64,000 nt of DNA from Candidatus Azobacteroides sp. (GTDB lineage: Bacteria; Bacteroidota; Bacteroidia; Bacteroidales; WRGA01): NCBI GenBank assembly GCA_021201815.1, contig JAJQEC010000083.1:5177-69176 (forward strand). Reading direction: 5' to 3'. The notes below the pieces were generated by a model, which was not told the origin of the DNA, ran no database searches, and saw only the letters and a program-made list of their open reading frames with translations. This document shows positions 11,298 to 52,640 of the stretch, piece after piece. Within the stretch, counting starts at the first letter, position 1. The number at the start of each line of letters is the position of its first letter. Both the position numbers and the translations under genes were made by a program.

Positions 11298-12413
11298 ATG
11301 AAAAAATATTGTTATCTTTTTGTCCTGTTTATTTTCTCCCTTCCATCTTTTACTCAGGAAATTATAGAAGTTCCCTTTGTTTACTCTGCAGAACATGAAT
11401 TCAGAAGGATGGAGAAAACAAATCTTAGTCCTTATGCTATGTTTGGTGACAATACAATTACCATGATGACGGCTCACGAACGGAATTCTGATTATGATCT
11501 GAAAATCCCGGTAATAGATCTAAAGGGGTTTCCAGGAGAATTTTGTCTGAATATGAGAACCGGTAAAGCAACAGTTTTAGATAATGAAGGATTTGTAATT
11601 TATGAAGAAATATTTCCTATGGATGCAAGAGCACGTTTTCTTACAATAGATCCGATGGCAGAGAAATATTATTCCATTAGTCCCTATGTTTACTGCGCAA
11701 ATAATCCGCTGAAATTTGTAGACCCTGATGGTCGGGAGATTTCTTTTAGTTTTGATTATGAAAAAGATAAGGACGGTAATTATGTTTTAGATAAATATGG
11801 AAATAAGAATATAACTAGTATAACAATGAATGTAACCGGAAAAGTATTAAATATGTCAAACGGCGGTGAAATAGATGTAAATGAAGCAACCGGACGTATT
11901 ATAGCTCAACTGGAAGCATCTTTCTCTGGAGATTTGGATGGGGTCTCATTTACTACCAGGGCCAATTTAACAGTTGCCAGTAGCATGAATGATGTTGCAG
12001 AAAATGATCATTTGTTTGTATTAGCTGATATTTCTTCTCATAAGGGTAAGACTCCAAATGGAGTTGCTAACCAGCTGGGTGGAAAAGTTGCTTTTATTAG
12101 TGCAGATTATTTCAGAGGACCTTGGGATACAACTATAGGAAATCTTGGTCCAGCTGTGGCAGCTCATGAGTTCGGACATCTGGCTAATTTAAAGCATTCG
12201 CCCAAAGGTCTTATGCGTGCAGCGTTTAAAAATTCTTTTTATACATCTTCTACGGACGTTCAGCCTAGTCAGTTACAGCAAATAGTAAATAGTGAATCAT
12301 CCCTTAATCAAGGAAATAATTATGAGTTAGTGCCTAGCAGAACAAAGTGGGGAACTGGAATGATAAAAAAAACACATAGAGGAAGAGAAGGCATAAGATA
12401 TATTAATTATTAA
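11298..12413 (+). CDS. Secreted polymorphic-toxin-like protein: Rhs-core tip motif plus C-terminal HExxH metallopeptidase domain
   Basis: 371 aa. Signal peptide, then RFLTIDPMAEKYYSISPYVYCANNPLKFVDPDGRE (Rhs/YD core end motif), then AAHEFGHLANLKH (HExxHxxxxxH spacing). Confidence 0.7.
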   Translation: MKKYCYLFVLFIFSLPSFTQEIIEVPFVYSAEHEFRRMEKTNLSPYAMFGDNTITMMTAHERNSDYDLKIPVIDLKGFPGEFCLNMRTGKATVLDNEGFVIYEEIFPMDARARFLTIDPMAEKYYSISPYVYCANNPLKFVDPDGREISFSFDYEKDKDGNYVLDKYGNKNITSITMNVTGKVLNMSNGGEIDVNEATGRIIAQLEASFSGDLDGVSFTTRANLTVASSMNDVAENDHLFVLADISSHKGKTPNGVANQLGGKVAFISADYFRGPWDTTIGNLGPAVAAHEFGHLANLKHSPKGLMRAAFKNSFYTSSTDVQPSQLQQIVNSESSLNQGNNYELVPSRTKWGTGMIKKTHRGREGIRYINY

Positions 12414-12415
12414 AA

Positions 12416-12883
12416 ATGATTAGAAAGTTAATAAAAAAAATAACAAAGGTCTTATTTATTCTATTTTTTGCCTTTTTTCTTTTTCAAGTATATTTTATTA
12501 TTAAGAATAAGGGTAATCTGGTTCTGGAAATAAGTAATGATTCGCTGAATATTGAGCAGATAGAAGTATATATCGATAATAAGAAAGTATTGGACCAGTT
12601 TGTTTTAAATGAAGGAATGCATATTTACAATAGTTATTCTTTATTTATAAGTCCCACAAATCATACTCTTTTTGTGAAAGTTGGTGATAATATTAGTGAA
12701 AAATATGAATTTAATGGATTTTTAGCTACTTGGGTGATTATAAATTATTATGGAAGTCGTTTTATTCATATAGATCGTGAAATTTTTTATATCGATTCAA
12801 ATAAATTGCCTCTTTGGTGGTATGCGAATTTGAATCCCGGAAAAAATATAGAACTGGCAACAACTATCAAAGAGATGAATTAA
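12416..12883 (+). CDS. Candidate cognate immunity protein (membrane-anchored)
   Basis: 155 aa. Starts 3 nt after the toxin stop, has an N-terminal TM helix, is very AT-rich and has no recognisable motif. The call rests on position only. Confidence 0.4.
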   Translation: MIRKLIKKITKVLFILFFAFFLFQVYFIIKNKGNLVLEISNDSLNIEQIEVYIDNKKVLDQFVLNEGMHIYNSYSLFISPTNHTLFVKVGDNISEKYEFNGFLATWVIINYYGSRFIHIDREIFYIDSNKLPLWWYANLNPGKNIELATTIKEMN

Positions 12884-14774: not shown

Positions 14775-15281
14775 ATGAATCCGATTGTAAGTATTATCAT
14801 GGGCAGTACTTCCGACCTGCCTGTTATGGAAAAAGCGGCTCAGTTACTGAATGAACTGGAAATCCCGTTTGAGATAAATGCATTGTCCGCTCACCGCACT
14901 CCTGCCGAAGTGGAGGAGTTTGCCAAAAATGCTTCCGGACGAGGAATAAAGGTTATCATTGCAGCAGCCGGAATGGCGGCCCATCTGCCGGGAGTAATTG
15001 CTTCCATGACTACTGTTCCTGTTATCGGTGTACCGATCAATGCTTCTCTTGCAGGAATGGATGCCTTGCTGGCAATTGTTCAGATGCCTCCGGGAATACC
15101 TGTTGCCACAGTAGGAATAAATGGTGCCTTAAACGCTGGTATTTTAGCTGTACAGATGCTTGCAACCGGAGATAATACCTTACAGCAAAAGCTGGCCGTT
15201 TATAAAGAAAACCTGAAAAAGAAAATCGTACAGGCCAACGAAGAACTGGCTAAGGTATCTTATCCATTTAAGACAAACTGA
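14775..15281 (+). CDS. purE: N5-carboxyaminoimidazole ribonucleotide mutase
   Basis: 168 aa. IIMGSTSD...SAHRTP...AAGMAAHLPG is a typical PurE sequence. Confidence 0.93.
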   Translation: MNPIVSIIMGSTSDLPVMEKAAQLLNELEIPFEINALSAHRTPAEVEEFAKNASGRGIKVIIAAAGMAAHLPGVIASMTTVPVIGVPINASLAGMDALLAIVQMPPGIPVATVGINGALNAGILAVQMLATGDNTLQQKLAVYKENLKKKIVQANEELAKVSYPFKTN

Positions 15282-15302
15282 TTCTATAGGGTATAAGAAA
15301 AG

Positions 15303-15352
15303 AAAAAACGGAGAACGGAAAGTCTAATGATTATTTCCGTTCCCCGTTTTTT
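15303..15352. terminator. Bidirectional hairpin terminator between purE and the convergent small gene
   Basis: aaaaaacggagaacggaaa / tttccgttccccgtttttt stem (one mismatch), flanked by A and T runs. Confidence 0.7.
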
Positions 15353-15403
15353 CTTTTCGTCGGTTAGCTATGCCAAATGCAGTTTCTTCAAATTCACATA
15401 GGG

Positions 15404-15736
15404 TTACGAAGAAATTTTCTTTCGTTTTTTCTTTACATATGCAATAAATAAGCCGGAAAAAATAAGTAACACCAGCTCCGGCGTCTCTTCAAAAGAAAGA
15501 GTATTATCCCCGCCAATCGGATCAAACCAGCTACTTGCCTGTGCTTGTTCATCCTGTGTGATTTCCTCTCCTGTTTCCTTTTCGGAAAAAAATTCCGTCT
15601 CTTTTTTTTCGGATTTTCTATGGGATAAGAACTCTTTCTTCTGGAAAGTATTATTATCCGGAAATATATTTTCTTCAGCTTGTATGGAAAAAGAAAAAAG
15701 CATACATACTATAAAGCATAAAAAATATGTTTTCAT
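15404..15736 (-). CDS. Small-protein family member S1 (signal peptide, acidic linker, SWFDPIGGD motif, PEP-CTERM-like tail)
   Basis: 110 aa. The tail is TPELVLLIFSGLFIAYVKKKRKK. Lies 47 nt downstream of the 1153-aa gene on the same strand. Confidence 0.65.
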   Translation of the reverse strand: MKTYFLCFIVCMLFSFSIQAEENIFPDNNTFQKKEFLSHRKSEKKETEFFSEKETGEEITQDEQAQASSWFDPIGGDNTLSFEETPELVLLIFSGLFIAYVKKKRKKISS

Positions 15737-15783
15737 CGTTGCGGATAGTTATTATATAAAGTTGTTGTTTCTGTTTACTTTTG

Positions 15784-18700
15784 TCAGAATATGGTTACCA
15801 TAAACTTATGGCGTTCGGAAGCATTTCCGGAGAATGACACTTCACAAATATATATCCCTGCTGCGGATAAGGGAAGCATAGTCTCAACCTCTAGCCGGGA
15901 ATGTGCCGGTTCCGATACTATCTTTTTTCCCTGTATATCATATACCATAATCTTTTCAACCGGTTGTCCTGCTGTTACAGAAAGGATTCCGTTTCTATAA
16001 AATACCCTTACCAGCTTATTTTTCCCGGCATCCGGATTCTCTTTTATAGAAGACAAAGAGCCTATATTTTTTATCCGGATCTCAAACCGTTCTTCCATTC
16101 CCGGATCATGTGTAAAAGAATAGGTGTTTTCCTGGTAGAAGTCTATTTCCTTGTTTAGTTTTTTATCATACAATACCAGGTCGGAAGTCGAAAGTTTTTC
16201 CGTATTGATAACCCGTAGTTTCATTTCTTCCTCCGTAATACATTTTATTCCCATCTGTAGAGTTGCTTCTTCCCCGAATATATACTGGATATCGTTTTTT
16301 GTGGGCCTGTTGTTGTCCATAATATACAACTGGGGAACCAACAAGTTTTCCTCGTGGGAGATAAACATTTTTTTTGAATTTTCCCCATTCTCTTTATTCA
16401 GAGCCAGCGTCACCATCGACTGGTTTGTGCCGTTTTCCGCCAGAAAGAAAAGAATATCCGGTTGATACTTGCTTCCCGTAGTTTTTAGCTGTAGGGGTTC
16501 ATTTTCCGGTCTGGTTACAGATGCCTCGGAAGGAAAAGAAATATCTACCGTATTTCCCGGCTGTATAGTCGATAGAAAGAATGCCTGTAGCGGTGCGATA
16601 TAGTTATCAAATAAAGGATTCGGGCCTATATGGTAATCGTAACTCTGAAACTGGTGATTTTCATACAGTTTAAAACTACTTTCTATTTTTCCTGTGTTTG
16701 CTTCATATAGTTTATCAAAATCCAGGGAAGAAACAAACGGATTCCCAATCATTACCTCTTTCCCTGCCGGCACGGTAATTGGAAACGGGTCCAGTGGATT
16801 ATTAGCATCATCCTCAAATACAAACCGGTATGCTTCGTCTGCACGGTAAAGTGTATCGGGTGTACGGGTGGAAAAAGGAAATCCGTCTTTCCCGTGGTAA
16901 AAGTAGCGGAAGGTACTGTATCCTTCCGTTGCGTTATAGGAATGAATGCGGTGCCGGTCACTTACAGACTGATTTTCAAAATAAGGAATTTCAATAATTC
17001 CTTTCAGTGCGTTGAGATTAGAATGGTCCTCTTTTCCCAATATCCCATATTCATGATGATCCACCAGTAGGGTAATGGCATAATTGGACGTAGTTCCCAG
17101 TTCATATCCGTTGGTCATGTCATTCATGGTCCAGCTACCCTCCAGTTCATCGCTATCACCGGAATTTCCGTCGGAAGAAGAAAATAACATCTGGTAGGTA
17201 AACGGATATCCCCCCAAGGAAAAGTCTCCTGAAGCAATTTTCTTTAGTGGCGCAGCCAGTGCATACCATCGGTTTCTTACCAATGGGGTAGCAGAATAAG
17301 CATCTCCGTCTGTTTTATATGTGTTGCCGTCGTAGTAACCAACATTATATTGAATAAATGCCTGCTTGTAAGTCAACAGCTGGGGTTTTGCTACTTCTCC
17401 TCCAAAATGGAAGTAAATCCTGTTGCATAGAGGATCGCCATACTTATCCCTTGGAGTATTCGTAGTGTCCAAGGATGGATAATTAGACGCGTTCCCCGGA
17501 ATATATACATCCGTACAATATTCAGGTACAAACACGGAAATACCCCCCGAGACAGTCAGCCAGTTTGAAGGATTGTTCCAGTTATTGTCCTCGGCAGCCG
17601 GATTCCAGGTCAATATATTGTCGGTTATCTCTATTTCACATGATAAGTTAGCCCGTTGTCCGGTAATAAAAACTACTTCCATTTCAATTTTATGCGTCCC
17701 TTTTGTAAGAGAGGTACTCCAGGTATGTATATTTCTTTTTGTGGTGTCTTCTATATCATCAATATACCAGTAAAGATAATCCCAGGACGTATCTACATCT
17801 CCTTCAATCACTGCTTCCAGAAGAATATCGTCACACACGGGAACTTGTTTTCCATCTATATGGTCGTAGGCAACTTCATTGACAAAAAATTCGGAGGCAC
17901 GGTTGATTTCTTTAAATGTACATCCTACCTGGTAATAATAGCTTTCTGCTTCTCCATACCCGTATCCCCATACCAGCATTCCTTCCGGATTGTAAAAAGT
18001 ATAATTCAGGGTTTCATCAAGTTTTACACGGATATAAGAATAACCGGAATGATGATCTGTCCATACCCCTGTAAGAGTAGCCCATGTCTCGTTGATATTG
18101 GTTTTCCATTGAGTAGAATTTTTATCACTTGTTTTTACTACTAAAATGGCATAATGCAATTCAACACTTGTTTGCCCCTGAGATACATATGCAGCCAGGT
18201 TCATACTTTCATTCAGCATCTGTTCTATCGGAGAAATCCATGCCAGCGCGGGATCTCCGATGCTGTTCCTTCCATTCAGAATTAACTCCTGTTCCGGGTA
18301 AGACCAGCCAACCATATACGAACATACGGCCACAGGCAGGTCCGAGGTGATATAAGCGCCAGCTTCCGAATGCCTTACAAACTCCTCTACAAATTCTCCT
18401 ACATTTATCGTATGTGTATTGTCACCGGTAAGTGTTTTCAGTGTAACCGTTGTATTATCTTCCGATGCTATGATTCGTATGATTTCAATTCCGGCATCTG
18501 TTACCGGAACAAAGAATTCTTTCCCCCATTTATCTACAGACACCATCTGCTCGAAAAGGTTATCCACGGCATTATATCCTACCGGAATATTTGTGCCATG
18601 GTTTACAACAAAACAAGCTACGGGCCTGGAAGCTCTGAGAAAAGTTCCGGTTAAATCTTCATTTAAATCACTTAAATGGCAATATACTTCTCCCTTAGAT

Positions 18701-19245
18701 AGGGTCGTTACAGGTTGTGGGGAATTATTCAGGAAAATATTTGTCCCGTCTTCTTCTGCAATCAATAAGAAAGAATCATAACTAAAATAAACCTCATTAT
18801 AATAATAAGGAGAATAAGACATAATATAATATCTTACTCCATAACTTTCTATAGGAAATACAGAAGCAGCTTCCGCAATCGAACGGGCCTGATTAAAAGC
18901 GTACACAAAAACATCCTCCGTAGAAGTTATTTTCAGGGACTTGTTTGAAGTTCCTGAGGCATCATTGGTTACCAGTTCTTTTTGATAATCATCCAGGGCA
19001 TACGTAATGATTTCATTTTCTGCCATGTGTATCTCATGGGAGCTATTGTCTTCTGTAAAAAGCAGGGTAACCGTACAGGCTTTAAGCGCTACAATACGAA
19101 CCTCCATGGAAGCCTCCTGACCGTTGTTCGGACCGAATGCGATCCAAAAATCCTTACCTCTTGTATCCTGTTGTGCATGAATATTGGTACAAAAACATAC
19201 AAACAAGCACAAAGCTGTCAGGTAAAAAGCTATATTTTTTCTCAT
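15784..19245 (-). CDS. Giant T9SS cargo protein (IgGFc-binding-like N-domain, shared central module, T9SS C-terminal domain)
   Basis: 1153 aa. Signal peptide, GKDFWIAFGPN start of the domain, C-terminal ...IMVYDIQGKKI...GIYICEVSF...KFMVTIF. Paralog of 54607-58038. Confidence 0.85.
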   Translation of the reverse strand: MRKNIAFYLTALCLFVCFCTNIHAQQDTRGKDFWIAFGPNNGQEASMEVRIVALKACTVTLLFTEDNSSHEIHMAENEIITYALDDYQKELVTNDASGTSNKSLKITSTEDVFVYAFNQARSIAEAASVFPIESYGVRYYIMSYSPYYYNEVYFSYDSFLLIAEEDGTNIFLNNSPQPVTTLSKGEVYCHLSDLNEDLTGTFLRASRPVACFVVNHGTNIPVGYNAVDNLFEQMVSVDKWGKEFFVPVTDAGIEIIRIIASEDNTTVTLKTLTGDNTHTINVGEFVEEFVRHSEAGAYITSDLPVAVCSYMVGWSYPEQELILNGRNSIGDPALAWISPIEQMLNESMNLAAYVSQGQTSVELHYAILVVKTSDKNSTQWKTNINETWATLTGVWTDHHSGYSYIRVKLDETLNYTFYNPEGMLVWGYGYGEAESYYYQVGCTFKEINRASEFFVNEVAYDHIDGKQVPVCDDILLEAVIEGDVDTSWDYLYWYIDDIEDTTKRNIHTWSTSLTKGTHKIEMEVVFITGQRANLSCEIEITDNILTWNPAAEDNNWNNPSNWLTVSGGISVFVPEYCTDVYIPGNASNYPSLDTTNTPRDKYGDPLCNRIYFHFGGEVAKPQLLTYKQAFIQYNVGYYDGNTYKTDGDAYSATPLVRNRWYALAAPLKKIASGDFSLGGYPFTYQMLFSSSDGNSGDSDELEGSWTMNDMTNGYELGTTSNYAITLLVDHHEYGILGKEDHSNLNALKGIIEIPYFENQSVSDRHRIHSYNATEGYSTFRYFYHGKDGFPFSTRTPDTLYRADEAYRFVFEDDANNPLDPFPITVPAGKEVMIGNPFVSSLDFDKLYEANTGKIESSFKLYENHQFQSYDYHIGPNPLFDNYIAPLQAFFLSTIQPGNTVDISFPSEASVTRPENEPLQLKTTGSKYQPDILFFLAENGTNQSMVTLALNKENGENSKKMFISHEENLLVPQLYIMDNNRPTKNDIQYIFGEEATLQMGIKCITEEEMKLRVINTEKLSTSDLVLYDKKLNKEIDFYQENTYSFTHDPGMEERFEIRIKNIGSLSSIKENPDAGKNKLVRVFYRNGILSVTAGQPVEKIMVYDIQGKKIVSEPAHSRLEVETMLPLSAAGIYICEVSFSGNASERHKFMVTIF

Positions 19246-20922
19246 GTTATATTTACTTAGGATTTATTTTAATAATATTTAATATATATTTTATGGATAA
19301 AATTCGGCAAAAATATAAAAAGATGTTTTTGAAAAATAGTGGTAGGAATTTTTCCTGTAAAAAATAAGGAGTCAATAGGTTATACCCTGATACGGATTGG
19401 TTTTAATCACTAAAAGGGTAACCTTCCATAGTTCCTTTAACCCGTTAGGGTATATAGGGCTTTGGTAAATAAAGGGTTGAAATTAAATGAAATAGAATGA
19501 AAAGGCCTTCCTGTGAAAATAAAAGGCCGAAATATAAAAACGGTTAAAGCTGAATATGTGGTTTTGAATAAAGAAAAAAATAACCGGAAGAACTGCCTAA
19601 GCAGAGACGTTCTGTTACCATATAAGTAATTCCTAACATTATATATACAGTCTATTTTTAATAAAATAGAGATAACTTCCAAATTATCAGAAGAAAAAGA
19701 GTTGTAATACCTCTTTCTCAGAGAATAAAATTTCATATATTTCCGCTCCGTTAACCTTACCTTAACTTACCTTACAATGCCTTACCTTATCTCAGGATAC
19801 TCTCTGTTCTGCAATTGTCGTTAATTGCTGGAACAAAATTAAATAAATATTTTAGTATACCAAATCTTTATGAAAATCAAAAATTATAATCGGTTAAAAA
19901 TTATTATTATTTATTTCAGAATCTAAAAAATGGATCAGGTTGATGCATTAAAATGTCCTGGTTCTTCTGCGGCCTATGCATTGAAGAGTTAACCAATGCC
20001 GGATGTTTCACCGGAAAAGGGTGAAATATGCTGATAAAAGATGAGTCGCATGCCAGGGAAGGTGTATCAAAAGTCTAATCCTCCTTTCATAAAATGATAA
20101 ATCCTAAGGACTGACCCCGGATGGAGTCAACTATGAATAAAGGCGGGTGAAACCCGTGGATGGAAAAATCCTTCACCTATACCCAACCCGAAAGGGTTCA
20201 ACCCCTTCGGTGTCCCCCATCAGGAGATTTTTAATGCGTAACCCAGAATTATTATTATATGGGATTTCAAATTCTGATAATCAACAAAGGCCGGATTAAA
20301 ATTGAAAATCAGCGGAGCTACATCCGGCCCGACGGGGGACCAGTACGGAAGGGAAGGGATATTGAAAAATCAACTACCATAAATAAATGCGTAATACAAA
20401 AAGATAGGTTAAAGAAAAAATCAAACACCCAAAAGATATTGAACAACATATTATACCCACTGTTTTTAAGTTTCCGGAGGTATTTTTGATTTATCTCCTT
20501 CATGGTGTGCAAATGGCACGTTCAGGTTATGAAACCGACGCCTTGAAGTTATGGAATTAAAGCCTTAATAGCATTGCCCGGTTATTATCAGGCGCACGTT
20601 TCATTACTATCAGACGCACGCCCGACTGCTGTCGGACGATAACTTGGAAGCTTAAAATATAAGACTTTATCACATCGTTTGTATAACCTTATGCTGGTGT
20701 TTTCAGGATGAATGAATCAAAATCAGTATCCTGGAAATTATCCAGTAAAAATGTGCTAGTATATTCATGTTCCGGAGAAGGAGTAGAAACTGGCCAACGT
20801 CTCCTATCCTTTCAAGACAAATTAATTAATTAGCGTCAACAACGAAGAGCCAGAAATGTGAAATAATAGACATTATTTCGTATTTCTGGCCCTTTATTTC
20901 TTAATCCTTCCGCATACCGGCA

Positions 20923-20970
20923 AGCTACGTTAGTGGCGACATGCACCAGCCGTTCGGCCTCAGCCCACAG
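20923..20970 (+). repeat. 48-nt intergenic repeat, copy 3 (solo)
   Basis: agctacgttagtggcgacatgcaccagccgttcggcctcagcccacag, about 75% identical to 4914-4961 with one indel. Confidence 0.65.
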
Positions 20971-21051
20971 ACTAATATAAATTATATAAAAACAAACAAT
21001 CGGGGAAAAATAAATTTCGAAAATATTAAATCATAGTTTAAAAAATATAAA

Positions 21052-21135
21052 AAAGGCCGGAAGTGGATAAGATAAAACAAGAGAAAAGAATGGTAAGGAT
21101 TCCTTTTTATTTTTATCTTACTTTTTCCGGCCTTT
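21052..21135 (-). terminator. Long hairpin terminator after the S2 gene
   Basis: aaaggccggaa..taagataaaa / ttttatctta..ttccggccttt (11 + 10 bp stems). On the minus strand it is followed by a T-rich run. Begins 7 nt after the stop at 21142. Confidence 0.55.
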
Positions 21136-21141
21136 CACTAG

Positions 21142-21537
21142 TTATGCAAGTGTATATTTTCTTTTTCTGCTTCTTAAAAGAATATAAGAAGCAGCAAGCA
21201 GGAAAATATATATCATAGCCTTTTTTGATGTCTCTAAAGAAAGCATTTTCTGAGGGGTACTTCCGTCGTCAATATTGGGAGGGGGTGCAGTTGCAGTTCC
21301 TTCTTCATCTTTCCAGATATCCGTGATGCTGCCGTTCTGCTGGAAAAATCCCTGCTGTTGCAAGGCTTTTGTTTTTCCCCCGGTGCTGTTTTCCTCTTTC
21401 TCATAGAGAATGGAAGTATATTGTTTTTTATCTCCGAAGGACACATTCTCTTCCCACCAGCCATAGATAGGACTGCTGAATGATAAGAGTATCGCCAGAG
21501 GCAAAAAAATAATTCTGTATTTATTCTTCTTTTTCAT
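21142..21537 (-). CDS. Small-protein family member S2 (signal peptide, polar linker, TM helix + RSRKRK tail)
   Basis: 131 aa. PPNIDDGSTPQKMLSLETSKKAMIYIFLLAASYILLRSRKRK aligns with the C-terminal region of S1 and S3. Lies 18 nt after the 297-aa gene. Confidence 0.6.
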   Translation of the reverse strand: MKKKNKYRIIFLPLAILLSFSSPIYGWWEENVSFGDKKQYTSILYEKEENSTGGKTKALQQQGFFQQNGSITDIWKDEEGTATAPPPNIDDGSTPQKMLSLETSKKAMIYIFLLAASYILLRSRKRKYTLA

Positions 21538-21555
21538 TTTTCATTTTCTTTTAGA

Positions 21556-22449
21556 TTACCGGTAAATTTTTTCCGTCAGCCTTTCCCCGTTAGCTGTCAT
21601 GGACTTTATCAGATAAATGCCTTTTGGCAGGTGATGCAAAGAAATAGTTTTTATCTGACTATGCTTTTCAATTATTCTTCCTGAGAGGTCTGATATTTCT
21701 ACGGCTGCTTCCTGGGAAAGAGATATATAGCTGTTCTCATAGGTCATGGTCAGTTTGTCTTTTTCAGTAAGTGGGAAAGTAGAAGGAATCCCCTGGTCAT
21801 CGGTCCAGATATAAATTCCGTATATGGCCACGTTTGTATTTGCACCGGAGAACGCATTTACCGGAAGGGAAGGAAACATCGGATCGGAAGAAAGCCTGAT
21901 AAACTTCGCATTTGTTACTTCCAAGATATCCGTTTCACTTATTCCTTCTCCCACAGAGCATGCTCCCTGAAAATAAAGGGGAGTATCGGGTATCATCCCC
22001 ATAAAGAGAGGCACGGTAAACCGATCTTCTTCATCTGTTGTGGTACTGTAGCCATAAGTCAGCATCCTGTTAGCATATCCGGTATTGTACCATCCACGGA
22101 AAGCAACATGGGTAATATTGGATGTGCCCGTGTTTTCGATCTGTATCCATGCATAATCTTTGCTATTTGTCTGGTTGTATGCCAGTACGGCAATATGGCT
22201 TCCGGTGTTTCCATCACAGGTATATGTATTCGCCTGCGTAATGGAAAAAGTATTGGAATCACCTGCTTTATCAAAAGTGAGTTTCACTTTACTCTGTGTT
22301 CCTCCTGTAAACTCATTGCTCCCTTCTGTAAAAGCTTCCTGAGAAAGGTTGATAATTGCAATGGTTGCCTCTGTAATATCTGTCTGGGCTGACACCCTGA
22401 TAAGGAAAATACTTCCCATAAGAAAAAAGGAAAAAATATACTTTTTCAT
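21556..22449 (-). CDS. Secreted protein with T9SS C-terminal sorting domain
   Basis: 297 aa. Signal peptide and C-terminus VEISDLSGRIIEKH...LPKGIYLIKSMTANGERLTEKIYR. Confidence 0.75.
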   Translation of the reverse strand: MKKYIFSFFLMGSIFLIRVSAQTDITEATIAIINLSQEAFTEGSNEFTGGTQSKVKLTFDKAGDSNTFSITQANTYTCDGNTGSHIAVLAYNQTNSKDYAWIQIENTGTSNITHVAFRGWYNTGYANRMLTYGYSTTTDEEDRFTVPLFMGMIPDTPLYFQGACSVGEGISETDILEVTNAKFIRLSSDPMFPSLPVNAFSGANTNVAIYGIYIWTDDQGIPSTFPLTEKDKLTMTYENSYISLSQEAAVEISDLSGRIIEKHSQIKTISLHHLPKGIYLIKSMTANGERLTEKIYR

Positions 22450-22487
22450 TGGTTATATGTCTTTGAAGTGAATATTCTTGTATTTCT

Positions 22488-25400
22488 TTATTTTGTATAA
22501 ATCTTTATTGTTCTGGCCGACTGTTCTGTCCTGGCCCTGACGATATACAGTTTATCGTTCCCTGTTACAACTTCCGTATGGAAATCATTTACAGCTAGCT
22601 GCCTGTAAACCGGTTTTCCCTGCAGATCATATACCTGCACTTCTTTCAGGGGAGTTCCGTCCACACTGGTAATCATTATTTTTCCGTTTACAGCCGTAAT
22701 ATCCACAGCAGTATGTACTACCGGATCCCTGGGTATTCCTGTGGGCATGCGTTTTTCAAACGAAAGGAAGAATCTATCCGTAAGGAATAAGTCCGCTGAT
22801 GTTTTTTCAAATTCATAGGATGGATAAATACGGATGTTGACCTGGGTCGGTGTTGCAGCATACATATCATTGAGATACATATCGTAATCCGGTGCAAACC
22901 GATTTGTCCCATCAAAATCCAGGCGGATAGTTCCGGTTTGGGAAGTACGTATTCCTATGGGTATTTGTTTTCTGTCAAGCTCCGTATCATGGAGTATGTC
23001 GAGAAAATTATTTTCTTTGTCCATCAGAAAGACAGAAACCGGCTCTGTTACTTCTTCCATAAATACTTTCTTAACAGATTGTGCCATCTCCTCATCCGAA
23101 CCGTTTTCATGGTATACCAGTATGGTCTTATTCTGCTGTCCGTTTTTAGAGGCAATAATGGAAAGGACATCCGGATTTATATGAATTCCGGTCGAGCGAA
23201 GTTTTGCTCCCGGTTGTGTCGTGGTCATGTAACCAAAGGTATATAACTCAGGGAACGGATTCTGTGACTCTACCAATACAGACTGCATGGGGGGTATATA
23301 TTGGGTGAGATTTCCGGTTGGGGGCACCCCAAGCTGGAACGTGATAAAGTTTCCGTCATCGGCATCCAGTACTTGGTAATAGTTCTTAATGGATGTGGAG
23401 TTATGATTATAGAACTGCTCAAAATCCCATGAAGCCATAAAAGGGTTTCCGACGATAGAGAGCTGGTTGGCCGCTGTCGCTGTGGAAGAAAGTGTAATTT
23501 GTCCGGTTGTATTATTTCTTGCCTGTTCAAATACAAACCGATGTTCGTTTTGCCTGTTGAGAGGAACGTGATAGTTCGGTCTGCAGTTTGTTCCATATAC
23601 GATATAATAAGGATCATTCTTAGGAAAAGAAAAGGCAATGGAATCATGGATGGTTTCATCCGGTTGCTTGTCGTCGATCCACAGGGAAAAACCTATTCCA
23701 CATTCCATGGCTACATCCGGCGTATGAAACGTCCCGGTCCAGTCAGCCGCCACATATTGTCCCGAATGGGGGTTCGCAGTTCCGAAAAGCCTTGTATATA
23801 CAAATACATCGTCATCGCATGGGTTCGGATCATGGACGTAATAATCCCCAGGATAAAAGTCCTGTAAAGGATTTGAAAGCATATACCAGCGGTTACTCAG
23901 TAAGGAAAGCTGCACATAGGCCTTTTCGTATATCAGGCTATCAGGATGTGCCACTTCGCCACCATGCTCAAAAGTAATGTTTGCACATTCGCTGTGTGGA
24001 TAATCATCATATTTCGTTTTGGAAGGAGACAGGTCGGGATAATTTTCTACTACATCGGGAATTAATACATTCGTACAGGCTCTTGGAATATTCCCCCGGG
24101 GATAAAGGGAGCTGGAAGGATTGTACCAGTTTTCATAATTATGCCAGTCCTGGTCCGCAGCTAGCCCTGTCCATATAAGAGAGTCCGGGAAGAGGTACAC
24201 ATGCACCGGTTCCAGTTTATTGGTCAGTAGCTGATTAGTCCCCTGGTCCCAGATCTGTATGTAATAGGTTTGCACCGGAGAAGAATCTTTGCATACTATC
24301 AGGGAATCGCCCATATGGATGGCCTCACTCAGGCTAGAAGGAGAATCGGTGGTATACCAGTAATAGTCATAGGTATCTTTCGGGGAGAGTTTTACCCATT
24401 CGCATGTGGTGGAGTCTCCGGGGATACTTTCACACATTACATATTCCCCGGTTACCAGGGAGATTCTGCTGGTCACATTATTGTAATACCGGCACTCTTC
24501 CATATCGTTCGGGTATTCTTTGTTTGCTTCATTCCAGTTCAGCCGGATTTCCCATTTCGTATAGGGAAATGATTGAAGCAGGGACGAAATATTGTTCAGT
24601 TCGTAAGAAATAGTCTGCTGCTGGTTCTGGGTAATGGACACGGATGGTTTGGTAAAATCTCCCAGCCACGTTTCAACAGCCGGTATCTGGTCCTCATCGA
24701 TCAGGAAAGTAGAGATCTGCAGGTTTCCGGTGTATGAACTATCCCCGCGGTTATTGATTCCGATAGTAATATTGAGCTTATCGGCTGCCGGGTCCCACAC
24801 CATCTGGTGCTGGAAATTTTTATCAAAGTACAGGTCAGGGCCATGGTGAAGGGTTTCACCTTCCGAATTCAGATCTGTCACCTGTTGCAGGAAATGGTTA
24901 AAAGGCCGGTTTCTTGTGGTACCGTCTTTGCTTACGAATTCCGTAGCCGGATTGACCGGGTATTGCGGAACGGTCAGGTCATCGTTGATATAGACCGGAT
25001 TATATCCATGCTGGTGGTTGATTGTCTTGCATTTGGCCCACTCATCGTCCGGATGACGGTAATGGAACAGGCGTACCTGTGCCCCTCTCCCGGCTACATC
25101 CAGTGCTCCGGAGACAATAATGTCAGCATGGTTATTCCTGTCAATATCTACAATTAACGGATACTCGGTATGAGTTGCAGAAAAACAGGGAAAGGTGATT
25201 CTGTTATTTCCGTTTTTATCCAGAATTCTCAGGTCTGTTTCATCGCGGTATACGAGTTCCACTTCCCCGTCCAGGTCAAAGTCAAACATAGACATGGTGG
25301 TAGCTCCGGAGGTATCGGAAGTTGTTCCTACAAATACCCGTTCAAATTTTCCGGTTGTTTTGTTATAACTGATTGCTGTCATTCCTCCTCCGTTACCACC

Positions 25401-26828
25401 TGCTGTCAAAGTAGTGCCATAGGTAAAACAAATCTCCGGTTCCCCGTTTCCTGTAATATCTCCGATAAAAGCCCGGGAGCCCATACGGGTTGTTGCTGCA
25501 TTAGCAGGTAGCGGGGCATCTGTCTGGTCAAGTAACAATCCTTTTTTAGGGCTCCATGCATACATTCTGCAGGAGGAGTTGTATGCCATCGTGTTCATTG
25601 CAGATCCGTTTACTACCACCACATCCGGGAATCCATCTCCATCGATATCAGCTACAGAAGTAAATCCGTCTATACGTATTGCGTCCAGTTGAGAGCTTAC
25701 ATAGGAAAGGACGCTCACACTATTATTTCCACTGATATATGCCGAAGCGCTCCGGTCTGTAATGATGGGTTTGTATACTGCGCTTCCACAGGCAATTTCC
25801 AGTTGCCCGTCGTTGTCAAAGTCAGCCATTACCGGCATATATCCATATCCGTTGGAAGACCACATACCACCTCTGGGGGCAGTCTGGTTGTTGGGTAACT
25901 TGTCCGGAAGGTCTGCCAGCAGATGACCTGTTACAGCATCAAATATCCGATCTCCTGCTACCACCTGCGGATAACCACTGTTATTTATATCTCCAATGAC
26001 TGGCGCAACAGAATTTCCATAATTTGGAGCCGGAGGAGTATTCTTAAAATAAGGATAAGAAGAGGTCCATCGGTTGCTCCATGTATCAGTGCCCTTATTG
26101 TATGCATAACAGCGTAACTTGTATCCATCGTCTTTTCCTGTGGCGATAATAATTTCACCAAATCCATCCCTGTCTACATCAGCAATCAGCATGGGGCATA
26201 TTGTCCATGGCTCTACGTTCGGGATTGAGATGGTTTTTTTCAGTGTCAGGTCCGGGTTAAAAATATAAATGGCATTACTATAACCGGCTAAATAATGGTT
26301 AAATGCGATGATTTCCTGCTTTCCATCCCCATCAATATCGCCTACAAGAGGCTTGGCATATCTGTACACAAACTCCTGAGTGTAGGCAATTTCCGATATT
26401 TTCCATGATGTAGGCGGTGGCGTAATGGCACATACATCCATTTCCATATTATCGGGCTTATCATTTACATGGATATACACCCAGGCTGAACTGGTATTTC
26501 CATTGCATTCCAGTTCGTATTTCAGGCTGTCTTTCCCGGTAAAGCCGCTTTGAGGAACATAGAGGATAGTTTTACTGCTCGTGTTCAGTTGGGGAGTGCC
26601 ATGAACCGGATTTGTCCCGATAGAAAGCCTGACCGTGCTTTCCTCGCATTCCCCCAATTCATCGTTGTTTAATACATTGATCAGTGCGTACGTACCCGGA
26701 GTGACAAATACATTGTCGGTATTTGCCCTGAAGGTGGATGACTGGCTTTTTACATAGGTTCCTATGGTTAGAAAAAATACAAGGAAGCCTGCATAAAGTA
26801 CGTTGTTGAGTAGTTCTTTATTCATCAT
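22488..26828 (-). CDS. Giant T9SS cargo protein with Ig/VCBS-like N-domain, FG-GAP/VCBS beta-propeller, shared central module and T9SS CTD
   Basis: 1446 aa. Eight DxDxDG-type loops (GDIDGDGKQEII, ADVDRDGFGEII, ADFDNDGQLEI, ADIDGDGFPDVV...). C-terminus VQVYDLQGKPVY...LYIVRARTEQSARTIKIYTK. Confidence 0.85.
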   Translation of the reverse strand: MMNKELLNNVLYAGFLVFFLTIGTYVKSQSSTFRANTDNVFVTPGTYALINVLNNDELGECEESTVRLSIGTNPVHGTPQLNTSSKTILYVPQSGFTGKDSLKYELECNGNTSSAWVYIHVNDKPDNMEMDVCAITPPPTSWKISEIAYTQEFVYRYAKPLVGDIDGDGKQEIIAFNHYLAGYSNAIYIFNPDLTLKKTISIPNVEPWTICPMLIADVDRDGFGEIIIATGKDDGYKLRCYAYNKGTDTWSNRWTSSYPYFKNTPPAPNYGNSVAPVIGDINNSGYPQVVAGDRIFDAVTGHLLADLPDKLPNNQTAPRGGMWSSNGYGYMPVMADFDNDGQLEIACGSAVYKPIITDRSASAYISGNNSVSVLSYVSSQLDAIRIDGFTSVADIDGDGFPDVVVVNGSAMNTMAYNSSCRMYAWSPKKGLLLDQTDAPLPANAATTRMGSRAFIGDITGNGEPEICFTYGTTLTAGGNGGGMTAISYNKTTGKFERVFVGTTSDTSGATTMSMFDFDLDGEVELVYRDETDLRILDKNGNNRITFPCFSATHTEYPLIVDIDRNNHADIIVSGALDVAGRGAQVRLFHYRHPDDEWAKCKTINHQHGYNPVYINDDLTVPQYPVNPATEFVSKDGTTRNRPFNHFLQQVTDLNSEGETLHHGPDLYFDKNFQHQMVWDPAADKLNITIGINNRGDSSYTGNLQISTFLIDEDQIPAVETWLGDFTKPSVSITQNQQQTISYELNNISSLLQSFPYTKWEIRLNWNEANKEYPNDMEECRYYNNVTSRISLVTGEYVMCESIPGDSTTCEWVKLSPKDTYDYYWYTTDSPSSLSEAIHMGDSLIVCKDSSPVQTYYIQIWDQGTNQLLTNKLEPVHVYLFPDSLIWTGLAADQDWHNYENWYNPSSSLYPRGNIPRACTNVLIPDVVENYPDLSPSKTKYDDYPHSECANITFEHGGEVAHPDSLIYEKAYVQLSLLSNRWYMLSNPLQDFYPGDYYVHDPNPCDDDVFVYTRLFGTANPHSGQYVAADWTGTFHTPDVAMECGIGFSLWIDDKQPDETIHDSIAFSFPKNDPYYIVYGTNCRPNYHVPLNRQNEHRFVFEQARNNTTGQITLSSTATAANQLSIVGNPFMASWDFEQFYNHNSTSIKNYYQVLDADDGNFITFQLGVPPTGNLTQYIPPMQSVLVESQNPFPELYTFGYMTTTQPGAKLRSTGIHINPDVLSIIASKNGQQNKTILVYHENGSDEEMAQSVKKVFMEEVTEPVSVFLMDKENNFLDILHDTELDRKQIPIGIRTSQTGTIRLDFDGTNRFAPDYDMYLNDMYAATPTQVNIRIYPSYEFEKTSADLFLTDRFFLSFEKRMPTGIPRDPVVHTAVDITAVNGKIMITSVDGTPLKEVQVYDLQGKPVYRQLAVNDFHTEVVTGNDKLYIVRARTEQSARTIKIYTK

Positions 26829-27101: not shown

Positions 27102-27122
27102 TCTCTCTCTCTCTCTCTCTCT
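27102..27122. repeat. (TC)10 dinucleotide microsatellite
   Basis: tctctctctctctctctctct, 274-294 nt upstream of the 1446-aa gene start. Confidence 0.95.
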
Positions 27123-27714
27123 AACATAATTCGGCTAACTGCCAAATTATCAGCAGGAAAATTAAAAGAAAAAGTGTATGTCAGAGAATGAATAGTCATA
27201 TTATACAACCCGATTAATCCGAATACAATAGTAAATTTTAACTGATAGTTAATTTGAAGGGCAAAATTAAGTAAATATTTTAAAATACCAAAAATTATAG
27301 AAATTAAGAGGAAGAATTAAAAGATGGATGTTATGAAGGAAATTACTTATAACAGGTAATTAATCTTTTCAGAAAGGAAGATAGAAAGCTATTTTTATTA
27401 ATCGTTTTTTTCCATCCGAAATTTATAGTTGTTGATAAATATTTCTTAATTTTTTCCAATTATAACTGCTATATAAGGTTAGGTTAGTTTTTATATCAAA
27501 TAGAAATAGCTAATTTGTAATTCTTTTTGCATTCTTTTTGTTCTTTTTTTAATTCTTTTTTGATAAAAAAAATCAATCGTTAAGTAAAGCTAATTTCTAG
27601 GATTTTTTTTGTTTCAGGTTCCGGATTCTGCATTTTTTTCCTCAACTTTGCGTAACCCTTAAGCTTACCGTGAAAAAGATTCTAATATAATAATAATCAA
27701 TAAATTGTTAAAAA

Positions 27715-51157: not shown

Positions 51158-52348
51158 TTATTTATTATTCTGGTTGCTATATAACTCTAGTTCCAGTGCT
51201 GAAATATTGTAAGAATACACAGCCTCGATATAATTACTCTTTATCTCACGGGCAGAATTCATGCTCTGGATAAACTGAACGACATCGGTTTCACTTTCCC
51301 GGAATTGTTTCCATGCAGTTTGTTCCAATGCGTCAGCTTCCGCCAGTGCTGCGGATTGATAGTAATGGATATTTTCCAGACGTTGGTTTAATACTATCTC
51401 CAGTTCCATGATTTTATTATCTAACTGGTAAAGCAAGTCATCAGCTTCTGTCCGGGAAATTTCATAATCAATCTTTGCCTGCCTGATCCGGCTTTTATTT
51501 GAAAAAAAGAAAACAGGAACGGAAACTCCGATTGCCCAGGAATCCAGCCTGCTGTCTGGAGTGATCTTTTGTCTTGTATATCCCACTGACAATTCCGGAA
51601 AGAGCTTGCTGCGTTCGACATTTACAAGTGCTTTCTTCGTTTCTGTCTGGTTCTCATAATATTCCTGATGAGTCACAGAGGGGAGATTATTTACATTCAA
51701 TACCGGATACAAATTCAGGATCGTATCTCCGGGAATTAATGTTACATCCGAATAACAACTCCATGCTAATCGATGCAGTGCAAGCTGTAGTTCTTCATCT
51801 GCCTGTATATTTTTTGTGTAAAGGTCTGCTGCCAGTGCTGTGATCATATTCTTATCCAGCAGGGAAATATTCCCTTGTTCATACCGGAGCGAACCGGTCC
51901 GGATTACATGATCGATCCATTCCTGATAATTACTTAGCAATACCTTCTGATGATACGCATACTGGTAGTAAGCCCATGCCCTTTTTACTTCCGCTGTTAC
52001 TTCTTTCTCCACCAATGCATAATACAACATACCTGTCCGGATTTCCTTTTTAATCAATGTATTTTTATAAAAAGGCAGCAACACATTTCCCAGAGACTGA
52101 TTGATCTCAAGCTGATGATCTTTTTTAGTGGGGCCATTGATTTGTCCCCATGAATAATTCAGGGAGGTAGCAGGAATATCCCATACTTCCCCCCGTGAAG
52201 CTTTTGTTTGTTCAATAGAAGCCGTTGTGGTTTTCAGCCGGGGATTGTTCCGGAGAGCAATATCTATCGCTTCATTCAGCGTAATCGTTTGCTGGGCAGG
52301 TACAGGAAACACAACTGCTGTCAGCACAAGAGGAAAAATGAATTTCAT
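51158..52348 (-). CDS. TolC-family outer-membrane efflux protein
   Basis: Start taken at the internal ATG (MKFIFPLVLTAVVFPVPAQQTITLNEAIDIALRNNPRL...). Two repeats of the TolC-like helical/barrel pattern. Confidence 0.8.
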   Translation of the reverse strand: MKFIFPLVLTAVVFPVPAQQTITLNEAIDIALRNNPRLKTTTASIEQTKASRGEVWDIPATSLNYSWGQINGPTKKDHQLEINQSLGNVLLPFYKNTLIKKEIRTGMLYYALVEKEVTAEVKRAWAYYQYAYHQKVLLSNYQEWIDHVIRTGSLRYEQGNISLLDKNMITALAADLYTKNIQADEELQLALHRLAWSCYSDVTLIPGDTILNLYPVLNVNNLPSVTHQEYYENQTETKKALVNVERSKLFPELSVGYTRQKITPDSRLDSWAIGVSVPVFFFSNKSRIRQAKIDYEISRTEADDLLYQLDNKIMELEIVLNQRLENIHYYQSAALAEADALEQTAWKQFRESETDVVQFIQSMNSAREIKSNYIEAVYSYNISALELELYSNQNNK

Positions 52349-52640
52349 CCAGCTTTTCCGTTTCCCTATACCGGTACTATTGACAAGTTTATAAAAAACA
52401 GGAATAATCAGCAGGGTAAGCACGGTTGACAGAAGCAATCCGCCTATTACCACCGTTGCCAGAGGCCGTTGCACTTCCGCACCAGCTGAAGTAGCGATAG
52501 CCATCGGAACAAATCCCAACGAAGCTACCAGATCGGTCAGGAAAACAGGCCGTAATAAGTGTGGACATCCTTTTGCAATTATGCGGTTTGTACTCATACC
52601 GTAGAGGTTTTGTTTTTTCAGATCATTGCTACCTTTTCCC
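52349..52640 (-). pseudogene. 3'-terminal remnant of a CzcA/HAE-type RND efflux permease
   Basis: ..LLRPVFLTDLVASLGFVPMAIATSAGAEVQRPLATVVIGGLLLSTVLTLLIIPVFY matches the last TM helices of RND pumps. About 90% of the gene is missing. It reads in frame into the TolC-like gene. Confidence 0.7.

Follow-up and report, generated by a model that had tools for sequence, protein, structure and literature searches.

A giant cargo of the type IX secretion system and its candidate small membrane partner in Candidatus Azobacteroides

Why is a gene for a giant secreted protein followed, after a gap of 47 nt, by a gene for a protein of 110 amino acids, and do the two belong together? This question is raised by locus 1a (positions 15404-19245) of a 64,000-nt stretch of contig JAJQEC010000083.1 from Candidatus Azobacteroides sp. 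(assembly GCA_021201815.1), and the whole of this stretch is called the window here. The locus is composed of the giant gene G1 (15784-19245), which encodes 1153 amino acids, the spacer between the stop of G1 and the start of S1 (15737-15783), and the small partner gene S1 (15404-15736), all on the minus strand. The original prediction, which was made by reading the letters of the window, regarded G1 and S1 as a duplicated pair of cargo and partner. Our analysis revealed that G1 is built like a type IX secretion system (T9SS) cargo, and that small units resembling S1, which we call S units, are genetically coupled to cargos that carry the same C-terminal module, gene fusion included.

The N-terminus of G1 (MRKNIAFYLTALCLFVCFCTNIHAQQ) shows a hydrophobic core and an A|Q site, which we read by eye as a Sec signal peptide. 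The motif GKDFW(I/V)(A/T)FGPN follows the signal peptide both in G1 and in its paralogue G2 (54607-58038, minus strand; 1143 amino acids), and the central module and the C-terminal domain are likewise common to the two proteins. An IgGFc_binding domain (PF17517) occupies residues 127-427 of G1 (17965-18867, minus strand), and this model scored 161 bits with G1 and 123.6 bits with G2 against a gathering threshold of 25.6. Behind it lies a module of about 535 residues (the C-module; residues 544-1078, 16012-17616, minus strand) that starts with a W-x-G...NWNNPxNW motif (LTWNPAAEDNNWNNPSNW in G1), and for this module we found no Pfam family, no sequence relative in the PDB and no whole-chain structural match. 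The protein ends with a T9SS type A C-terminal sorting domain (CTD; residues 1079-1153, 15787-16011, minus strand). The CTD passes the TIGR04183 model with 26.1 bits (cut-off 23) and stays below the cut-off of PF18962 (15.1 bits, cut-off 27). The CTD of G2 falls under the cut-offs of both models (14.2 bits), yet it is homologous to that of G1 across the region. When the C-terminal 610 residues of G1 were modeled using AlphaFold2 with a 34-sequence alignment, the predicted local distance difference test score (pLDDT) was 87 and the predicted TM-score (pTM) was 0.79. The last ~75 residues of this model superpose on the CTD of RemA in the translocon complex (8gl6_D) with a TM-score of 0.83 and a root mean square deviation of 1.8 Å. 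The same domain also superposes on 8gl8_D (TM-scores of 0.83-0.84 for both), and the RgpB CTD (5ag8_A) was obtained as a local match. G1 adds a new cargo with an unannotated conserved module to the type A-like class of T9SS cargos. Our literature search for IgGFc-binding proteins in connection with T9SS found nothing.

The C-module is also present in the third giant of the window, G3 (22488-26828, minus strand; 1446 amino acids), which has an FG-GAP/Big_9 N-terminus followed by the C-module and the CTD. The identity over the shared C-module and CTD is 23% (E = 2e-33). Since one C-module stands under IgGFc_binding N-termini in G1 and G2 and under an FG-GAP/Big_9 N-terminus in G3, the C-module is a cassette that is joined to varied passenger domains. 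When we searched with a profile of the three window C-modules, 33 proteins were retrieved at E ≤ 0.001 among 5.8e9 proteins, and 39 loci were found in GTDB representative genomes. Almost all of the hosts are uncultured Bacteroidales, Dysgonamonadaceae, Tannerella, Azobacteroides and Lentimicrobiaceae metagenome-assembled genomes (MAGs). The organism of the window is without a close relative. The best match to its C-modules reaches 40% identity, and at the level of 90% identity its housekeeping proteins are all singletons. All-against-all scoring of 20 C-modules resulted in four groups, namely clade A (G1, G2, L002, L004, L012, L008 and L007, where L denotes loci of other genomes), clade B (G3, L041, L013, L017, L023 and L016, plus L010 and L015), clade C (L021, L022 and L024), and an intermediate pair formed by L018 and L019. 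IgGFc_binding-like N-termini (G(T/K)DF(Y/W)I...) were also observed on C-modules outside clade A, in L015G (L015 4438-7692) and L021G (L021 3829-7719), and their occurrence across the clades shows that passenger domains were shuffled onto the cassette of C-module and CTD.

We then examined the small protein. S1 begins with a signal peptide (residues 1-20, 15677-15736) that ends in ...SIQA|EEN, and this is followed by an acidic low-complexity stretch of ~65 residues (residues 21-85; isoelectric point 4.3) holding the motif WFDPIGGD (residues 70-77, 15506-15529) within SWFDPIGGD. A hydrophobic helix of 14 residues (residues 88-101, 15434-15475) and the tail KKKRKKISS (15407-15433) complete the protein. 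The AlphaFold2 model of S1 contains helices at residues 2-21 and 86-109, and its pLDDT is below 50 at residues 25-30, 32-34, 39-60 and 76-82. Comparison of S1 with Pfam and NCBIfam matched no family. We considered three other identities for S1 and ruled them out. S1 has no Cys preceded by a lipobox and is hence not a lipoprotein; its cytoplasmic part would consist of just 9 basic residues, which speaks against a regulatory or anti-sigma protein; and S units track the C-module irrespective of the passenger domain, which speaks against an immunity protein.

An architecture filter (signal peptide, no internal hydrophobic stretch, C-terminal transmembrane segment and K/R tail) was applied to both strands of the 64-kb window, and it yielded exactly four open reading frames (ORFs), S1, S2, S3a and S3b, each of which closely follows one of the window's three C-module genes. 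S2 (21142-21537, minus strand; 131 amino acids), which carries the motif APPPNIDDGSTPQK, is the last gene of locus 1b, a three-gene cassette G3-M-S2 (21142-26828, minus strand) whose middle gene M (21556-22449, minus strand) encodes a T9SS CTD protein of 297 amino acids. G2 is followed after 57 nt by S3a (54139-54549, minus strand; 136 amino acids), and S3a is followed after 222 nt by S3b (53461-53916, minus strand; 151 amino acids), the closest relative of S1. The original prediction was correct in that S1 starts 47 nt after G1 and carries SWFDPIGGD, and in that GWVDPIGGD occurs in the 151-residue ORF. One correction applies to this ORF, then named S3: it does not lie next to G2, since S3a is placed between them and the former S3 is the distal S3b. 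The motif of S3a has degenerated to NWFVPVSKNN, and this loss of DPIGGD (VPVSKNN instead) points to a tandem duplicate in the course of divergence or decay. When a hidden Markov model (HMM) built from non-window S units only was run against the 224 ORFs of the window, S2, S1 and S3b were the top three (E = 6e-13, 6e-6 and 3e-5; next 0.11). An HMM built only from the fused and upstream units of clade A placed S1 first and S3b second among the window ORFs (E = 0.0024 and 0.022), aligned on dPiGG.

The loci of relatives were scanned both by architecture and by HMM. According to our tally, a recognizable S unit stands at 17 of the 29 informative C-module loci in Bacteroidales and Lentimicrobiaceae MAGs, the three of the window included, and the detection is insensitive, as a remnant at L043 was missed by the HMM. 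Downstream of the cargo, the S gene follows at L018 (gap of 3 nt), at L019 (24 nt) and at L037 from a Lentimicrobiaceae MAG (64 nt), whereas at L013, L017, L023 and L041 it comes after an intervening T9SS CTD protein of ~300 residues. The whole cassette of FG-GAP C-module giant, ~300-residue T9SS CTD protein and S unit, which recurs in no fewer than five other Bacteroidales genomes, is kept at the latter four loci, and partly at L016. Upstream of the cargo, the S gene overlaps the cargo ATG by 4 nt at L046 (133 amino acids, before P0043) and at L050 (103 amino acids, before P0046). Cargos of clade A are extended at their N-terminus by an in-frame S unit at L004 (3940-4320), L012 (4003-4380), L005 (~1124-1450), L002 (4399-4730) and L043/P0036 (60-330), and the fusion at L004 was independently confirmed as a continuous ORF by the ORF listing. 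These fusions begin with a signal peptide and a low-complexity region, followed by (V/A)LYGPGG(N/D)PIGGLP, a hydrophobic helix, a basic stretch (e.g. RMIRTRMRYKK) and the cargo signal peptide. The cargo's own signal peptide follows directly after the basic stretch, as in TQILPIVLLCCSFLSLQAQ|E, and at L004 this second signal peptide is without a Met. The fusion motif GG(D/N)PIGG matches the DPIGGD of S1 and S3b. As a side observation, gene callers often begin the cargo at the second signal peptide or within the S helix (P0036), so that the fused unit is missed in databases. P0069, the sole S homologue that was recovered independently of a cargo query, sits in a cassette of giant, 297-residue protein and S unit. 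The association of S units follows the C-module and not the size or the N-terminal domain of the cargo. The original prediction made its case depend on S1-like genes being rare away from giants, and we found none apart from a giant gene.

Searches with the S proteins themselves gave few matches. A profile of the four window S proteins retrieved only these four proteins in a word-indexed search of 5.8e9 proteins, and an exhaustive HMMER search of 1.8e9 representatives with the S profile added only two S2-like proteins (E ~1e-4). A metagenome scan with S1 and S3b found no relative, and a scan with the L013-type S protein found nothing beyond the already known contig. This near-absence of matches in public protein sets indicates that the S family evolves fast. 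The APPP...PQK residues are invariant among the S2-type orthologues. Comparison of S1-type with S2-type units using hhalign gave a probability of 63%, which is marginal, and the bridging sequences L046S (YAPPDGGDPLGVPIG) and L018S (YARPPEGGHALGVPV) connect the APPP-type with the DPIGG-type motifs.

Did cargo and partner multiply together? G1 and G2 could be aligned over their full length using BLASTP (549/1170 identities, 47%; 1052 bits, E = 0), in agreement with the collinearity that had been proposed for them. Their C-modules are reciprocal best hits among the 20 C-modules, with 691/676 bits as compared with at most 406 bits to any other. Among 12 S proteins, S1 and S3b are also reciprocal best hits with 42 bits (33 bits without signal peptide and transmembrane segment), and S3a is the next with 30 bits. 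The other S clusters are formed by S2 with L041S, and by L013S with L017S and L023S, and the S clusters mirror the cargo groups. The best matches and the similarity clusters of cargo and partner therefore agree, so that the view of the two-gene unit as the duplicated module is upheld; the two histories are congruent at the coarse resolution of similarity clusters, and the S trees rest on similarities of 20-40 bits. At the DNA level, locus 1a and the G2 locus (locus 2) are similar only over 1358 nt of the C-module coding sequence (65%), and their flanks share nothing. The lack of DNA similarity outside the coding region indicates that the duplication is old. The evidence agrees with the view that G1-S1 and G2-S3a/S3b arose through duplication of a unit of cargo plus partner within this lineage. 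The two-gene pair is one arrangement of a wider unit, which is often fused to or located upstream of the cargo.

Based on these observations, we lean towards the view that S1 is a cargo-dedicated bitopic escort or hand-over factor of the inner membrane that acts on the periplasmic face, a role deduced from its architecture and genetic setting. S1 would be exported by Sec and then processed by signal peptidase I, and the cleavage sites of many S units follow the A|Q or G|Q pattern of Bacteroidetes. The mature protein would stay in the inner membrane as an N-out/C-in bitopic protein, in which the acidic disordered segment of ~65 residues and the membrane-proximal Pro/Gly motif WFDPIGGD would face the periplasm, the short helix would span the membrane, and the Lys-rich tail would lie in the cytoplasm. 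We infer this topology from the K/R tail behind the transmembrane segment, which by the positive-inside rule should be cytoplasmic, and from the fusions, in which the basic loop runs straight into the cargo signal peptide that must start a second translocation, again placing the S tail in the cytoplasm. S1 may then act on the cargo from the periplasmic side as an escort or holdase, or may hand it over from Sec export to T9SS delivery. The S unit would be required at about 1:1 with the cargo, where and when the cargo crosses the inner membrane; an N-terminal fusion of S to the cargo implies equimolar production of both at the same translocon. A wider proposal, which we offer only tentatively and consider rather doubtful, is that S units form an unrecognized class of inner-membrane factors dedicated to cargos of type IX secretion. 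Encoded on its own or as a pre-domain at the cargo's N-terminus, which gives a "double signal peptide" precursor, the S unit would couple the Sec export of C-module cargos to T9SS delivery, possibly on the side of the PorLM/GldLM motor. If this were true, cargos would be selected or handed over at the inner membrane in a step that is absent from current T9SS models.

Several findings weigh against assigning S1 an escort or hand-over role. The hydrophobic helix of S1 is only ~14-15 residues long, which is short for a helix that stably spans the inner membrane and characteristic of sorting signals that are cleaved. The membership of S1 in the wider S family is weakly supported at 12-20 bits and leans on one short motif and the architecture. 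About 12 of the 29 informative C-module loci are without an S unit, so the unit is not obligatory. The sequences of the fused ORFs derive from MAG assemblies, and translation may start at internal sites as well. Finally, one family member, the unit of 78 amino acids at L037 (L037S, Lentimicrobiaceae), passes the NCBIfam model NF046080 PID_CTERM with 28.7 bits (cut-off 26), which favors a different explanation. According to it, S1 is a "mini-protein" substrate of PID-CTERM/PEP-CTERM-type sorting: a dedicated enzyme would remove the transmembrane segment and the basic tail and link the acidic peptide to a component of the envelope, and the peptide would there be a matrix partner of the secreted giant or a docking site for it at the surface. 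The tripartite signature of S1, consisting of motif, ~14-residue hydrophobic helix and basic cluster, is that of sorting signals, and S1 and its relatives gave sub-threshold scores with Loki-CTERM (12.5-15.1 bits, cut-off 19.9) and Heimdall-CTERM (15.2 bits, cut-off 24). However, the PID_CTERM model at E ≤ 10 matched none of S1, S2, S3a and S3b (whole or as C-terminal fragments), L013S, L018S, L019S, L046S, L050S and the fused units. Moreover, the unit is internal at five loci (L004, L012, L005, L002 and L043) with the cargo signal peptide right behind it, which would not fit a strictly C-terminal sorting signal; the unit of S1 itself stands at the C-terminus. No sorting enzyme was seen here, and we know of no PID-CTERM sorting enzyme; our search for papers on PID-CTERM found none. 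Taken together, we regard sorting of S1 as unlikely.

The fused forms, in which the S unit stands immediately ahead of the cargo signal peptide, and the restriction of S units to giant proteins could also be explained if S1 acted in cis or early in export. It would then aid membrane targeting for the Sec translocation of very large cargos, like extended signal-peptide regions, and would have no role after periplasmic release. In the window and in clade B, however, S is encoded downstream and translated after the cargo, so that it cannot act in cis on targeting, and the association of S with the C-module rather than with size or N-terminal domain also argues against an aid for large proteins; we consider this explanation improbable. 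Still less credible, and already disfavored, is the idea that the small ORFs are there by chance, or as hitch-hikers that decay fast, and are functionally unconnected with the giants. The very low sequence conservation of S units (20-40 bits between types), their lack of a family annotation and the many C-module loci without them would fit such an origin. Against it, the same architecture and motif recur beside C-module genes in at least 14 loci of other genomes, in several families and in three arrangements including in-frame fusion, all four of the feature-defined ORFs of the window adjoin the three giants, and orthologous S2-type genes hold the APPP...PQK residues invariant. We retain the escort or hand-over function at the inner membrane as our reading of S1.

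Locus 1a is a two-gene transcription unit that probably starts at a promoter near 19834-19864, takes in G1 and S1 and ends at a terminator at 15303-15352, and on this arrangement we infer that G1 and S1 are co-transcribed. The bidirectional intrinsic terminator (15303-15352), which lies between the convergent S1 and a purE-like gene (14775-15281) and had been pointed out in the original prediction, is real. Folding of 15295-15360 gave a strong hairpin of 25 bp with an A-run on the 5' side and a U-run on the 3' side (folding free energy of -37 kcal/mol, z = -9.5 against shuffles); a simple terminator scan missed this hairpin because its loop is longer than 8 nt. On the other side of G1, a 1.9-kb upstream region of its own had been suggested. 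The gap to the nearest upstream ORF (the S2 stop at 21142) is indeed 1896 nt long and contains no called gene, also in an independent assembly of the same sequence, but a part of it probably belongs to the preceding operon, as a hairpin with 23-nt arms at 20845-20894 is the probable terminator of G3-M-S2 and sets the limit of the part that is G1's own. This hairpin and a promoter-like element inside the gap indicate that the 1.9-kb region is neither one regulatory region nor wholly that of G1.

The promoter-like element (TTTGGTATACTAAAATATTTATTTAATTTTG, 31 nt; 19834-19864, minus strand) is of the Bacteroidetes type, TTTG ... TAnnTTTG, and is located ~590 nt upstream of the G1 ATG. A copy with 29 of 31 positions identical is present upstream of G3 (27262-27292), which makes 2 matches where 0 are expected by chance. 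A leader element of 18 nt (CTGATAATTTGGAAGTTA; 19673-19690, minus strand) also recurs upstream of G3 (27136-27153), as well as upstream of the G3 orthologue in L041 (L041 2413-2424). Since G1 and G3 share both elements, they are probably under common regulation and have long 5' leaders of ~590 and ~435 nt, respectively. G2 lacks the promoter-like element as well as the leader element. The 5' leader of G3 also contains a (GA)10 microsatellite (27102-27121, minus strand), whose position is kept in the leader of the L041 orthologue, and it could be a slipped-strand or regulatory element. The ~1 kb between the putative G1 promoter and the hairpin of the upstream operon (19865-20844) has a coding-like GC content of up to 0.43, although neither a called gene nor an Rfam match was found in it; it could be a decayed gene or an RNA of a new type. 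Rfam searches of the window at gathering thresholds and of 19200-21200 at permissive thresholds found nothing credible, just a hairpin that was scored as a plant microRNA, and no tRNA was found in the window. An invertible promoter in the upstream regions was considered and rejected, as there are only weak AT-rich inverted repeats.

Two further sites of the window were noted. In a 479-residue ORF (51158-52597, minus strand), the first ~75 residues are similar to the very C-terminal end of RND efflux permeases, and the remainder has a weak match to TolC-type outer-membrane factors. This ORF resembles a fusion across a gene boundary, or its start may have been mis-called where two genes of an efflux operon meet. 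At 11298-12883, an ORF of 371 amino acids with an RHS repeat-associated core domain (at the cut-off) is followed by an ORF of 155 amino acids without a family, and the two may be a toxin/immunity pair.

How do G1 and S1 compare with known systems? G1 resembles the T9SS type A CTD cargos, such as RgpB of P. gingivalis and RemA of F. johnsoniae, in its Sec signal peptide, its large multi-domain passenger and its C-terminal beta-sandwich of ~75 residues, and it differs from them in the module of ~535 residues before the CTD that has no Pfam or PDB relative. To our knowledge, the known type A cargos have not been described with a dedicated small partner gene. What S1 shares with PID-CTERM (NF046080), PEP-CTERM, GlyGly-CTERM and LPXTG proteins is that a Sec-exported protein ends in a motif, followed by a short hydrophobic helix and then a basic cluster. 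Unlike in these tripartite sorting domains, its motif lies ~10 residues ahead of the helix and does not abut it. Helpers of giant adhesin export that act at the level of the inner membrane are known in the accessory-Sec proteins Asp4/Asp5 and in the extended signal-peptide regions of large autotransporters. These, too, are small elements associated with the membrane that act at the cytoplasmic-membrane step and are either fused to very large surface proteins or encoded together with them. The likeness may be regarded as an analogy only, as they have no sequence relationship with S units and belong to other secretion systems and phyla. Our searches of Pfam, NCBIfam and the searchable literature found no description of S-like units or of a double-signal-peptide precursor. 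The C-module of ~535 residues and the S unit are two unannotated families for curation.

It has been known that type B CTD cargos occur with an adjacent PorP/SprF-like partner, as in SprB-SprF and PG1035-PorP (PMC9143113). This is the nearest known arrangement of cargo plus partner, since here, too, the partner gene adjoins the cargo and the pairs are multiplied as paralogues in one genome. However, the PorP/SprF partners are beta-barrels of the outer membrane that anchor the cargo, while S1 has 110 amino acids with two predicted helices and disorder. S1 does not belong to the PorP/SprF family, as it gave no match with the PorP/SprF models in Pfam and NCBIfam, and the CTD of G1 scores as type A and not as type B as in SprB-SprF. 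As far as we know, T9SS partners that are specific for a cargo have so far been described as PorP/SprF barrels in the outer membrane, which serve type B CTDs. The S1 protein would be a different kind of partner, predicted to be a small bitopic protein, that is tied to a type A-like cargo family by adjacency, overlap and fusion and appears to have been duplicated with its cargo. If S1 is functional, one gene of ~110 codons would provide a simple genetic handle on early giant-adhesin biogenesis in Bacteroidota, and it would bear on how T9SS cargos stay competent, get selected in the periplasm and receive energy from the inner membrane.

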